Below are positions 13,658 to 16,366 of a stretch of 16,366 bases of DNA, piece after piece. Each line of letters starts with the position of its first letter. Within the stretch, counting starts at the first letter, position 1. The DNA is from a virus (Duplodnaviria; Heunggongvirae; Uroviricota; Caudoviricetes). The notes under the pieces are model-generated. The model saw only the letters and a list, made by a program, of their open reading frames with translations. It was not told where the DNA came from and made no database searches. The stretch lies in IMG/VR virus record IMGVR_UViG_2698536392_000011; one strand, 5' to 3'. The translations under genes and the position numbers were made by a program.

Positions 13658-13662
13658 AAAGA

Positions 13663-13693
13663 AAAAGCCATCGATAGAAATATCGATGGCTTT
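13663..13693. terminator. Bidirectional intrinsic terminator between convergent G (+) and the acetyltransferase (-)
   Basis: aaaaagaaaaa-AGCCATCGATA-gaaa-TATCGATGGCT-ttt: 11-bp perfect stem, 4-nt loop, A-run upstream and T-run downstream, 6 nt after the G stop and 10 nt from the acetyltransferase stop (13701-13703). Confidence 0.65.
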
Positions 13694-13700
13694 ATGTACT

Positions 13701-14273
13701 CTATTTATACAATACAGCACCGCTCTTTTTAGTTATATATGTGCAGTTCGATGGTATATCTTTATTTATAAAAGACATTGCACCTATTTTTACATTATCC
13801 CCAATTTTACGGGATAATCCAATGATGCAACAATTAGCTCCGATATCAACGTTGCTACCAATTTTTACTCTTGAACCAGGTATGTCACCATCTATCTGTC
13901 CAATGGTCGTATTCTGTCGTAACACCAGATTTTCACCAGCATCAACAGCAAAATGAACAACAATTCCAGCATGATGGGGAATTGTTAACCCTTTTCCAAT
14001 ATTTGCGCCCAATCCAATTTCGCAACCAAATTTGTTAATTATTTTACTGTTTAACTTCTTGGCTGCTTTCTTATGTAATTTATTACCATTAATATACATT
14101 TCGTTAGCCAACCGCCACCAGAAAAGGAAATTCCTGTTACGCTGCTTTTTCTCTCTTAAAAGCCTCCAGATATCCATACGTTTCCGCCGAATTACTTCAT
14201 GTTTCCAGAAGTTTTTTAAATTAGTAGAGTTCCCAAATAAAACAAAGTGAATTGCCATTAGGTAAGACAGCAC
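13701..14273 (-). CDS. Hexapeptide-repeat (left-handed beta-helix) O-acetyltransferase, CysE/WcaB/NeuO-like; AT-rich cargo gene (moron)
   Basis: ORF 13701..14306 (-). The product has the serine-acetyltransferase-family layout: FLFWWRLANEMYINGNKLHKKAAKKLNSKIINKFGCEIGLGANIGKGLTIPHHAGIVVHFAVDAGENLVL followed by IGSNVDIGANCCIIG...IGDNVKIGAMSFI hexapeptide repeats. Preferred start is GTG 14273 (AAGGAG at 14280-14285, 6-nt spacer); ATG 14258 and GTG 14306 are alternatives. The region is visibly AT-rich compared with its flanks (by eye, not computed). Confidence 0.8.
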   Translation of the reverse strand: MLSYLMAIHFVLFGNSTNLKNFWKHEVIRRKRMDIWRLLREKKQRNRNFLFWWRLANEMYINGNKLHKKAAKKLNSKIINKFGCEIGLGANIGKGLTIPHHAGIVVHFAVDAGENLVLRQNTTIGQIDGDIPGSRVKIGSNVDIGANCCIIGLSRKIGDNVKIGAMSFINKDIPSNCTYITKKSGAVLYK

Positions 14274-14324
14274 GATAATCTCCTTAATTATTATTTCAGA
14301 CCACACATGTTATAAGGTTAAGAG

Positions 14325-14353
14325 ATTATAAAATCCTGTTGTTTATTATTCAA
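14325..14353 (-). promoter_or_regulatory. Putative sigma70 promoter for the acetyltransferase gene (-35 TTGAAT, 17-bp spacer, -10 TATAAT)
   Basis: On the - strand: TTGAAT (complement of 14348-14353), 17 nt, TATAAT (complement of 14325-14330). Predicted start site around 14317, leaving a ~45-nt leader to the GTG 14273 start. Confidence 0.45.
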
Positions 14354-14429
14354 AAACAATTTTCTGAGAAGGACATACAACAGCAAGTCGCCAGTCACCT
14401 TCATCAGGAAATTGGCGACATACGTTAAA

Positions 14430-14924
14430 TCAGAGCAGCCCCTTAACTGAGCTGGCCGCGCTATTAAGGGATGATGTCACCTTATCTTTGAAGCCGGACA
14501 ACATATCGCTGAACGATGAGGATTGCAGGCGCTCCCGCAAATCCTCATCACAGCGTTCAAGAGTCAGTGAAAATTCTATCTTTTTCGCCTTACCGTAGCG
14601 ATCAAACTCGGAACGGGTCGTATTCGTTTCAGTCAGTACATACATGCCGTAAATCTGCCCGACACCATCAATCAGAGGCCAGGGCCGTCCTGTATATGCC
14701 TGCGTGGTCAGCAATGAAAGCGACACTTCGCCACCTGTAATTTCAGGATAAAGCACGCCGGAAAGCACAATGCGATCATCACCTGCACCGATATACTGCC
14801 AGCTTGCTGAACGGTTAACGCGTTCATTTTTCACATGCCGCCAGCTTTTGTTTTGCTGTAACTGCTGATGCGGCAATGTGCGCAGCTCAAAAACAAACAT
14901 GCCGTAGATCATCATCATGACCAT
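14430..14924 (-). CDS. U: Tail protein gpU
   Basis: MVMMMIYGMFVFELRTLPHQQLQQNKSWRHVKNERVNRSASWQYIGAGDDRIVLSGVLYPEITGG...GRPWPLIDGVGQIYGMYVL matches remembered P2 gpU (MMMVLGLFVF...YQELQ...RVNRSGAFQFLGIGDE...AWPLIDGTG). GGAG lies 6 nt upstream of ATG 14924, just after the T stop. Confidence 0.85.
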   Translation of the reverse strand: MVMMMIYGMFVFELRTLPHQQLQQNKSWRHVKNERVNRSASWQYIGAGDDRIVLSGVLYPEITGGEVSLSLLTTQAYTGRPWPLIDGVGQIYGMYVLTETNTTRSEFDRYGKAKKIEFSLTLERCDEDLRERLQSSSFSDMLSGFKDKVTSSLNSAASSVKGLL

Positions 14925-14930
14925 GACTCC

Positions 14931-16366
14931 TCAATCTTTATCGTAAAAACTGCCACGTCCGGCACGGGCGCGCCGTTCCATCTCTGCCCTGACCATTTCA
15001 CCGACCAGTTTCGCCAGTTCGCGGGGATTCTGCGTAACAACGTTATGCAGATGAACATGAATTTCACCGCAAAATCCGGAGACAGCAGGCTCCCGGTTAC
15101 GGGAAGTTGCAGGAACTGATGCCACTGGCGATCGTATGGCCTCCGCCACCGGGCGGGAGCTGGCCGCAACAACAGGGACCAGCGCCGGAGGCAGCGGAGC
15201 CGAGACCACGGGTGTGATATTAATTGCGGGGGCAGGCTTACTGACCTGCGCAATCTTCCACTCCTGCCACTCCCCACGAACAGCAAGTGCGCGGGGCAGG
15301 TTCTTAAAGACAATATCGCCGGGGCCAATGCGTTTTTTCGTCTCATCAACCAGCTTACCTGTGTTATCAGCAATTTTGCTGAGTCTGCGTAGCGTCCCGG
15401 TATTGCTGTCTGTGAGCGGTTTGTTGTCTTTGGGTTTATCACCTCCGGTGCCATTGCCATTTTCCACAGGCTTCGGCGGATTGATTTTCGCCAGGTCCCC
15501 CTGAAGCAAGGCAACCTTGTCCTGAAGAATGGCCGCACGCTGTGCGTCTTCGATTTTCTTGCGCGCCCTTTCCGCTTCATCCGGAAGGACACCAAGTTTT
15601 TCAAGTATCCACGCCAGCGTATCCAGTAGCATTTTTGCAGGTGTCAGAACAAGTTGTAACGCACCGCCAAGAACGTTACCGAATACCTCGCCAGCACTGG
15701 TGCATTTATCCAGCGTTTCCTTGCTGGACTCCATCGGTGACAACAGCGATTTAAACCAGTTAAACACCAGGCTGATCCCGCTTCCGATTGCGTCAAAAAC
15801 AGGGCCAAACCGTTCAAAGGTTTCACGCAACGGAGTCAGCCTTTCCATAATCCCGCTGAACACCCCGGCAAAAAATGCCCTGATGGGATCCCAGTATTTC
15901 CAGATAAGAACGGCAGTTCCGGCAAGCGCAGCCACGATAAGACCAACCGGACTGAACAGCGCCCCGATAGCGCCACCCAGCAAAGAAACAGAACCCGTCA
16001 CCATTCCCCACAGCGCAGGCAACACCCTGATGACATTCATTGACCGGGTAAGAATGTCGAAACCAAGACGCAAGGTGGCCAGCTTCCCGTAAAGCACCCC
16101 AATAACCAGCGACAACGAGCCAATCGTTGCAGTCATTGCCAGCAACGCACCGCCTGCTATCAGTAGCTGGCGCGTCAGTACCGGATGGGCCTGCGCCAGC
16201 GAGGTGATTTTTTCAAGCACCCGCGTGAGCCACTGCGTGACAGAACGCAGCGGACCGTCAACCAGATCACTGATGCGAATACGAAGACCTTCCCATGCGC
16301 TGTCGAGATTTTTCAGGTCTCCATCAAGATTATCGGCCTGAACCGCCCCGGGAATCCTGGAGACTA
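14931..16366 (-). CDS. T: Tail tape measure protein gpT, C-terminal part; the gene continues past the window end
   Basis: The - strand frame is open from 16364 to the stop at 14931-14933 (I checked 16221-16364 for in-frame stops and found none). The product has hydrophobic glycine-rich segments and sits immediately upstream of U, as gpT does in P2. Confidence 0.8.
   Translation of the reverse strand, partial: VSRIPGAVQADNLDGDLKNLDSAWEGLRIRISDLVDGPLRSVTQWLTRVLEKITSLAQAHPVLTRQLLIAGGALLAMTATIGSLSLVIGVLYGKLATLRLGFDILTRSMNVIRVLPALWGMVTGSVSLLGGAIGALFSPVGLIVAALAGTAVLIWKYWDPIRAFFAGVFSGIMERLTPLRETFERFGPVFDAIGSGISLVFNWFKSLLSPMESSKETLDKCTSAGEVFGNVLGGALQLVLTPAKMLLDTLAWILEKLGVLPDEAERARKKIEDAQRAAILQDKVALLQGDLAKINPPKPVENGNGTGGDKPKDNKPLTDSNTGTLRRLSKIADNTGKLVDETKKRIGPGDIVFKNLPRALAVRGEWQEWKIAQVSKPAPAINITPVVSAPLPPALVPVVAASSRPVAEAIRSPVASVPATSRNREPAVSGFCGEIHVHLHNVVTQNPRELAKLVGEMVRAEMERRARAGRGSFYDKD

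Follow-up and report, generated by a model that had tools for sequence, protein, structure and literature searches.

Convergent tail operons of a P88-like Escherichia coli prophage reflect the standard late-gene layout of a P2-like phage branch

According to the annotation of phage P2, the genes FI-FII-E-T-U-D-ogr are all located on the plus strand, and a single activator site is shared by the divergent promoters pP and pO. Ogr/Delta late promoters possess a TGT-N12-ACA dyad centred approximately 55 bp upstream of the start site. Phages P88, PhiSM, SEN4 and 3LV2017 carry U-T-E-FII-FI on the strand opposite to V-W-J-I-H-G, with D divergent from FI; the full order, found in three genera, is V-W-J-I-H-G rightward, U-T-E'-E-FII-FI leftward, and D and ogr rightward. 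Plaque formation is reported for P88, after mitomycin C induction, and for PhiSM and SEN4 (PMC5285337, PMC6456863, PMC5261728). No published statement on an inversion was found in the P88 and SEN4 papers, neither of which contains a word starting with "inver", or by full-text search (Casjens and Grose 2016 lay outside its coverage), and the sole match to "invert" in the PhiSM paper refers to a DNA invertase.

The window analysed here, i.e. the whole stretch of 16,366 nt, belongs to a P88-like prophage (Peduoviridae, probably genus Xuanwuvirus) of E. coli, and E. coli 2012C-4227 matches it entirely at 100% identity. P88 was colinear with it at 95% identity in the blocks 186-5604, 7601-10914 and 14424-16338, located to either side of the G/U junction. 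This match covered 68% of the 16.4-kb window, itself only part of the genome, and cargo and a fibre cassette made up the 32% without P88 match; genus assignment in ICTV practice uses approximately ≥70% nucleotide identity over the full length. The Peduoviridae structural set was present, with Pfam and PHROG matches for V, W, J, I, H, G, U and T, while O, N, M, L, X, R and S are named by RefSeq in the 99.9%-identical genome 90-3040. A NanS-like esterase moron, not found in P88, was also observed at positions 5605-7600. The features relevant to the junction are given below.

753-772, minus strand: late-promoter activator dyad TTGT-N12-AGAA in the divergent P/O spacer (motif search)
8651-9232, plus strand: gpV (ORF and family match)
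9229-9579, plus strand: gpW (ORF and family match)
9583-10478, plus strand: gpJ, split by a frameshift (ORF and family match)
10438-11079, plus strand: gpI (ORF and family match)
11076-13079, plus strand: gpH (ORF and family match)
10915-14423, no strand: swapped tail-fibre cassette (3' end of I, H, G, acetyltransferase); P88 colinearity ends at 10914 and resumes at 14424
13079-13657, plus strand: gpG, tail fibre assembly, final gene of the rightward baseplate/fibre operon (Pfam Caudo_TAP, 1.1e-40; PHROG 105, 1.2e-96)
13664-13693, no strand: hairpin with a 13-bp stem between the convergent G and acetyltransferase genes (terminator scan)
13701-14273, minus strand: hexapeptide (left-handed beta-helix) acetyltransferase of the CysE/EpsC/WcaB type (Pfam Hexapep)
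14325-14353, minus strand: sigma-70-like promoter TTGAAT-17-TATAAT upstream of the acetyltransferase (consensus scan, 10/12; a pattern match only)
14387-14419, minus strand: hairpin 11 nt past the U stop codon, perhaps a weak terminator for the leftward tail operon
14430-14918, minus strand: gpU, final gene of the leftward FI-FII-E-E'-T-U operon (Pfam Phage_P2_GpU, E = 5.5e-39)
14931-16343, minus strand: 3' 1413 nt of the tape-measure gene T (PHROG 28, E = 1.3e-62; PHROG 17114; TIGR01760)
16344-16366, no strand: end of the IS3-family element interrupting T (P88/DEC5E homology stops at 16338-16344)

Comparison of the ORFs and family matches with the all-plus order of P2 confirmed that U and T are minus-strand genes converging on H-G and that D does not come after U, in agreement with the initial annotation. 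U is followed by the minus-strand acetyltransferase gene, and tblastn searches using D, FI, FII and ogr protein queries from P2, P88, SEN4 and 3LV2017 gave no match within the window. The organisation of P2 proper (D directly after U and colinear with V-G) did not occur in the window, which possessed the P88-type order of V-W-J-I-H-G rightward and U-T leftward. The rest of this order was found in P88 and in the near-identical copies of 90-3040 and DEC5E, where the region past position 16366 contained leftward E-FII-FI, then D and ogr. The gpU product was 98% identical to that of P88, 53-62% identical to those of SEN4 and 3LV2017 and 41% identical to that of P2, and its coordinates agree with the RefSeq annotation.

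The gpD reported as missing is encoded beyond the end of the window by a full-length, single-frame gene of 369 codons (tblastn), 98% identical to P88 gpD, and adjoined by an ogr/Delta-family gene in both 90-3040 and DEC5E. A damaged D, as suggested by the 801-nt gene of RefSeq in these two genomes, was considered and rejected, since tblastn gives a full-length frame and the shorter RefSeq gene seems to reflect the choice of start codon rather than a lesion.

The distribution of the layout was assessed in a census of 80 loci around gpU homologues in species-representative genomes. It comprised 45 loci of the inverted type, 31 of the P2 type and 4 uninformative ones, with no mixed cases, and the split between the two types tracked how closely each gpU matched the query in percent identity. 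In a neighbour-joining tree of the sheath protein, the 45 inverted-type and 29 P2-type sequences were reciprocally monophyletic. A link between the census loci from Xenorhabdus and Photorhabdus and the xenorhabdicin tailocins was considered and dropped, as the tailocin paper places the variable region between sheath and fibre genes, which is a P2-like order.

Since intact relatives with exactly this arrangement exist (P88, PhiSM, SEN4 and 3LV2017), a finding that the initial annotation had itself named as counting against a rearrangement, its third option of a different genome architecture was the right one. The "inversion" of U and T and the "missing" D are the standard layout of a large viable P2-like branch (P88/SEN4 group) that extends across many Enterobacterales genera, and are ordinary. 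Convergent H-G and U-T genes in P2-like prophages should thus not be annotated as a rearrangement or a loss of gpD. We are highly confident that the window displays the normal late-gene architecture of P88, SEN4 and 3LV2017, carried by a decaying E. coli prophage.

The copy in the window is plainly defective: IS elements interrupt P and T, and N and J are frameshifted. An IS3 transposase is annotated just past the end of the T homology in 90-3040, and RefSeq calls T a pseudogene "missing N-terminus", with an IS3 adjoining. E. coli DEC5E carries an IS-free copy of the prophage (99.75-99.8% identical) that spans int to hok and is sited between yecA and tRNA-Leu; T, an intact gene of 2808 nt, E, FII, FI, D and ogr are all intact in it.

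If the FI-to-U block had been inverted locally and recently in the present prophage or strain, with the second breakpoint outside the window, this would agree with the true inversion of the block relative to P2 and with the several IS elements of the prophage, which could mediate a rearrangement. Such a recent event is nevertheless very improbable, as the same order occurs in the four phages above, in the 45 census loci, which span many genera, and in the IS-free DEC5E copy. Moreover, the IS ends of the window are located in P and T and not at the junction, and no long inverted repeats flank the FI-U block (the longest being 21 nt with 76% complementarity); the short imperfect inverted repeats (≤19-21 nt) beside it are taken as chance. 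The proposed FI-to-U inversion holds only as a probable ancient, lineage-defining event, and fails as an event peculiar to the present sequence.

The non-P88 stretch at the junction (10915-14423) replaces the H, G, invertible segment and invertase of P88, and P88 homology restarts 6 nt past the U stop. In JL22, a P1-like phage, the stf-tfa-acetyltransferase region matched part of this stretch (12036-14265) at 92.7% identity. The location of this stretch, together with the degraded state of the prophage (frameshifted N and J, IS elements in P and T), could recall the other event raised in the initial annotation, a deletion or recombination joining the remnants of two P2-like prophages with loss of gpD. 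This is equally hard to credit, since D is intact and adjoins FI beyond the window end, and both sides of the junction diverge equally from P88 (95.1% and 94.9%) in P88's own order. Furthermore, the stretch is a fibre cassette swap that joins no two genomes, and the junction is carried in 496 complete E. coli genomes.

The acetyltransferase arrived with this horizontally exchanged fibre cassette and holds the slot of the P88 invertase cassette. Its best NCBIfam matches were EpsC (6e-21), CysE and WcaB, all far under their cut-offs (61 of 211 bits for TIGR01172, 36 of 397 for PRK11132 and 75 of 150 for EpsC). PDB serine acetyltransferases matched the product at 1e-12, and the hexapeptide part alone aligned to the CysE chains. 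The RefSeq name, serine O-acetyltransferase CysE, which calls for a score over the equivalog cut-off together with an N-terminal SATase helical domain, was rejected given the score below this cut-off and the alignment of only the hexapeptide part to CysE structures; the product is best described as a putative CysE/EpsC/WcaB-like hexapeptide acetyltransferase. The gene has a GC content of 37-38%, compared to approximately 55% for the phage, and neither P88 nor any of the 45 inverted-type loci from other species possesses it; its junction with U was found in no isolated phage of the phage collection.

The hairpin between G and the acetyltransferase (-19.8 kcal/mol on the plus and -21.3 kcal/mol on the minus strand; z = -7.7 and -7.0, respectively) is likely a bidirectional intrinsic terminator, and a comparable GC-rich hairpin was present in 17 of 23 other P88-type loci with a short G/U gap. 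The hairpin following U folds at -22 kcal/mol (z = -3.1) and lies within the stretch non-homologous to P88. With a promoter and a terminator predicted by pattern matching, and a location between two phage operons, the acetyltransferase gene has the features of a low-GC phage moron. A weaker possibility is that the fibre-linked enzyme would modify the surface receptor of the co-transferred tail fibre.

Programmed flipping of the tail operon by an invertase is even less credible. P88-type phages carry a Hin/Cin-like invertase, whose gene adjoins U in P88 and in 4 of the 45 loci, but the block has one orientation in all 45, including those without invertase, and the window itself has none. In addition, crossover-site-like inverted repeats were not found flanking FI-U, and the P88 invertase is located beside a second, oppositely oriented pair of fibre and fibre-assembly genes, which fits fibre switching. 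Misassembly at the 14.3-14.45 kb junction, suggested by the sharp GC drop there and by the IS repeats in which the window ends, can be dismissed with near certainty, as positions 13000-16366 are 100% identical in four independent finished E. coli genomes, and 496 of 5,426 complete genomes contain at least 80% of this segment in one contiguous piece.

Concerning the origin of the P88/SEN4 branch layout, the separate clades in the sheath tree fit one old inversion of the FI-U block, for which we infer breakpoints at G/pF and U/D. In such an event, the FI-FII-E-E'-T-U transcription unit would have been flipped as a block relative to P2 and would converge on the V-W-J-I-H-G operon at the terminator-bearing G/U gap, with D and ogr retaining their original orientation and thus becoming divergent from FI. 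Based on midpoint rooting and on general knowledge of other contractile tails, in which U and D are colinear, the P2 order is probably ancestral and the P88 order derived.

The flip would also have set the Ogr-binding site of pF beside D, and the distribution of the activator dyad is consistent with this. In SEN4, TTGT-N12-ACAA occurs exactly three times, in the P/O, S/V and FI/D spacers, and in 3LV2017 it occurs three times in the stretch examined, including P/O and FI/D. TTGT-N12-AGAA is located at P/O and FI/D in P88, DEC5E and the window's prophage (FI/D lying beyond the window), and an additional match inside the T gene of all three is taken as chance. The dyad of the Xuanwuvirus group, TGT-N12-AGA, thus has one mismatch to TGT-N12-ACA, which is perfect at FI/D in SEN4 and 3LV2017. 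Exact TGT-N12-ACA had 0 matches in the window compared to 4.25 expected by chance, and only the comparison with SEN4 and 3LV2017 revealed the one-mismatch site.

Across the inverted-type loci, the FI/D spacer held one dyad in 35 of 43, with no dyad under the search pattern in the other 8. In these 35 loci the distance from its centre is 75-89 bp to the FI ATG and 68-77 bp to the D ATG; the P2 dyad centre lies 83 bp from the FI ATG by our own arithmetic. Because the single dyad-symmetric Ogr-type site of pF is located midway between FI and D, as for pP/pO in P2, the FI/D spacer is a good candidate for a second bidirectional late promoter with a shared activator, from which, judging by motif position, D would be transcribed. 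We lean towards the view that the inversion was tolerated and fixed branch-wide because the Ogr-binding site of pF is dyad-symmetric, the flip creating a second bidirectional late promoter, pF/pD. The late regulon of the branch would then consist of two divergent promoter pairs with one activator site each. No description of a bidirectional pF/pD promoter was found in the searchable literature.

Compared with known systems, the prophage shares the late gene set of P2 (O N M L X, lysis, R S V W J I H G, FI FII E E' T U D, ogr). In P2, however, the F operon ends with D, whereas here FI-U is inverted and D is separated from it. The G/U gap is the counterpart of the cargo slot occupied after G by Z/fun in P2, and likewise carries cargo in the lineage of the window. 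SEN4 (Senquatrovirus) and 3LV2017 (Reginaelenavirus) have the inverted FI-U block and D divergent from FI, as here, but belong to other genera and do not carry the acetyltransferase, and SEN4 has a separate S/V spacer with its own dyad. The P88 relatives PhiSM, 500465-2, 520873, 503458 and P884B11 show approximately 95% nucleotide identity in shared blocks and the same late-gene order as here. Between G and U, P88 itself carries a DNA invertase along with an invertible alternative fibre segment, in contrast to the other H/G cassette and acetyltransferase found here; the present prophage also adds the NanS-like esterase moron, and is inactivated by IS insertions and frameshifts. Finally, the C-terminus of H, G and the acetyltransferase share 92-95% DNA identity with the stf-tfa-acetyltransferase genes of JL22 and vB_EcoM-Ro157c2YLVW. 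The phages hosting this module are unrelated; in JL22 it lies beside the S-U-cin fibre genes of a Punavirus, and the JL22 annotation shows the fibre module and the convergent acetyltransferase in the same relative orientation as in the window.

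A P2-type late region was recognised in the window from the ORF list and Pfam, PHROG and NCBIfam scans, and the interval between G and U additionally held two hairpins and a predicted promoter:

8651-9232, plus strand: V
9229-9579, plus strand: W
9583-10478, plus strand: J (two ORFs)
10438-11079, plus strand: I
11076-13079, plus strand: H
13079-13657, plus strand: G
13664-13693: strong hairpin (z about -7 on either strand) separating G from the acetyltransferase gene
13701-14273, minus strand: hexapeptide acetyltransferase
14353-14325, minus strand: predicted sigma-70-like promoter near the acetyltransferase gene
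3' of the U stop codon: weaker hairpin predicted by folding
14430-14918, minus strand: gpU (Phage_P2_GpU, E=5.5e-39)
14931-16343, minus strand: T (tape-measure gene), 3'-terminal 1413 nt

No match to D, FI, FII or ogr was detected within the window by tblastn with the proteins of four reference phages. As FI-FII-E-E'-T-U-D-ogr are colinear with V to G in P2, the observation in the initial annotation that U and T oppose H and G, with no gpD following U, was borne out. The tail fibre gene H contained three tandem 132-nt (44-residue) units at 11526-11942, with about 90% mutual DNA identity, which coincided with three Phage_fiber_2 repeats; DNA similarity to P2 H (84%) was confined to this segment.

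The window was 100% identical to Escherichia coli 2012C-4227 (NZ_CP013029.1, 2810254-2826619), and strain 90-3040 matched it at 99.9% identity. Its best phage-record matches were Escherichia phage P88 and relatives (genus Xuanwuvirus), with P88-colinear blocks of about 95% identity at 186-5604, 7601-10914 and 14424-16338. Since these blocks lie on both sides of the G-U gap, with equal divergence and in P88 order, both flanks belong to one P88-like element. An IS-free copy in E. coli DEC5E (O55:H7), 99.75-99.8% identical across window 186-16338, extended from int, next to yecA, as far as hok, next to tRNA-Leu, and had nearly all annotated genes intact, including every late structural gene.

The window ends (1-186 and about 16344-16366) were ends of IS3-family elements interrupting the terminase gene P on the left and T on the right; positions 1-187 showed 97% identity to part of an IS600 copy adjoining ogr in 90-3040. 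Compared with DEC5E, 1-bp indels were present in N (2188), a NanS-like esterase moron (6452) and J (9986/7); those in N (major capsid, 1704-2757) and J (baseplate, 9583-10478) shift the reading frame of the gene. With P and T each disrupted by an IS element and these indels in addition, the prophage in the window is defective. J was intact in 90-3040, yet I carried an internal stop; as the lesions differ, the two are sister copies decaying independently. Though the window copy is defective, it keeps the gene order ancestral to its lineage. The moron (5605-7600; ORFs 5657-6478 and 6510-7535), an insertion separating R from the lysis genes, is a DUF6645/SASA-type gene for a NanS-like 9-O-acetyl-sialate esterase, with about 86% identity to the yjhS/nanS-p genes that Stx and lambdoid phages carry. 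It is missing from P88 and intact in DEC5E; the additional T at 6452 frameshifts the window copy.

The same late gene order was found in intact phages. In the P88 annotation, H and G are followed by a second fibre/chaperone pair and an invertase; next come U, T, E', E, FII and FI, all encoded by the minus strand, and finally D, back on the plus strand. This order recurs in Klebsiella phage 3LV2017 (Reginaelenavirus) and in Salmonella phage SEN4 (Senquatrovirus). P88 forms plaques after mitomycin C induction (PMC5285337), SEN4 is plaque-forming (PMC5261728), and PhiSM is released spontaneously, forms plaques and lysogenises E. coli K-12 (PMC6456863). For a census, one genome per species was searched for gpU relatives and each of the best 80 loci was typed from its tblastn matches to V, W, J, I, FI, FII, D and ogr. 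Of these, 45 were of the inverted type (V to G rightward, U to FI leftward, D and ogr rightward) and 31 were colinear as in P2; the remaining four gave no information, and mixed loci did not occur. Inverted-type hosts included Salmonella, Serratia, Enterobacter, Kosakonia, Pantoea, Klebsiella, Edwardsiella, Providencia, Morganella, Photorhabdus, Xenorhabdus, Pectobacterium, Citrobacter and Hafnia, among others, and the two types were reciprocally monophyletic in a neighbour-joining tree of the sheath protein. Among the readings offered by the initial annotation, a different genome architecture is thus the only correct one, and a rearrangement of this particular element is refuted by P88, 3LV2017, SEN4, the census and the tree; the initial annotation had itself named a shared order in related intact phages as the outcome that would count against it. 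Published and classified phage genomes already show the arrangement. Its distribution is consistent with a single old inversion of FI-U, of which we infer the polarity (which state came first).

Programmed flipping of the FI-U block is unlikely, as no long inverted repeats flanking it were found and its orientation was constant with or without an adjoining invertase. A deletion joining two remnants, with gpD missing, had also been proposed; beyond the window end, however, both 90-3040 and DEC5E carried the rest of T, E', E, FII and FI (minus strand), then D and ogr (plus strand), D being a full-length, single-frame gene of 369 codons with 98% identity to P88 gpD (tblastn), though RefSeq annotates a short D. 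On these grounds, both claims were rejected. Misassembly of the junction was excluded, 13000-16366 being identical in four finished genomes and at least 80% contiguous in 496 complete genomes.

G and U converged within 25-360 bp in most inverted-type loci, with a GC-rich perfect hairpin in 17 of 23 such gaps; the gap in the window was wider than in most. The acetyltransferase gene within it (37-38% GC) encoded a CysE/EpsC/WcaB-like hexapeptide transferase scoring well under all the curated cut-offs; the name 'serine acetyltransferase' thus holds at family level only. It was part of a swapped cassette (10915-14423), in a slot corresponding to the Z/fun locus of P2 and the invertase cassette of P88. 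P1-like phage JL22 carried window 12036-14265 (H C-terminus, G and acetyltransferase) at 92.7% identity in the same relative orientation. Given this shared module, and since P88 and each of the 45 inverted-type loci in other species lack the gene, the acetyltransferase islet is cargo travelling with the tail-fibre module; a role in receptor or surface-polysaccharide modification would be a guess. Phage vB_EcoM-613R2, otherwise unrelated (lambda-like head genes, Mu/SfV-like tail genes), had a segment (31-1427 of its record) starting with a 29-codon, 93% identical 3'-end fragment of P88-type gpU, followed by a 35%-identical hexapeptide acetyltransferase convergent with tfa. This matching layout suggests that the cassette was exchanged along with a scrap of U.

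Putative activator dyads of the Ogr type, as at late promoters, were located in the spacers. The perfect dyad TTGT-N12-ACAA occurred exactly three times in the SEN4 genome, between P and O, S and V, and FI and D, and the 3LV2017 stretch examined had three perfect dyads, including those between P and O and between FI and D. P88, DEC5E and the window carried TTGT-N12-AGAA between P and O (753-772 in the window) and also between FI and D, a spacer that for the window lies beyond its end. An additional match inside T in all three was taken to be chance. So was the 84% complementarity to the FI-D dyad region of the 19-nt GTTGTCGCCGTATGGAGAG inside G (window about 13375-13393; 27189-27207 in a further sequence record, L086), because it is short and eight other such pairs occurred in 8.4 kb. 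One dyad lay in the FI-D spacer in 35 of 43 inverted-type loci, its centre lying 75-89 bp from the start codon of FI, compared with 83 bp in P2 (our arithmetic from the P2 annotation), and, in loci with a reliably aligned D start, 68-77 bp from that start. No text discussing the inversion or a pF/pD promoter was found in the literature searched.

Phages of the P88 group have overlapping S and V genes (window 8651-8654) with no activator dyad between them; the SEN4 S-V spacer holds a perfect dyad (position 9262). The Xuanwuvirus head-to-fibre genes may form a single long operon from pO, unlike P2 with its separate pV. In P2, D is the final gene of the F operon, and one annotated activator site serves the divergent pP and pO. 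A flip of the FI-U unit would carry the symmetric pF activator site to D's side, and we infer that it would thereby have created a bidirectional pF/pD late promoter, by analogy with pP/pO.
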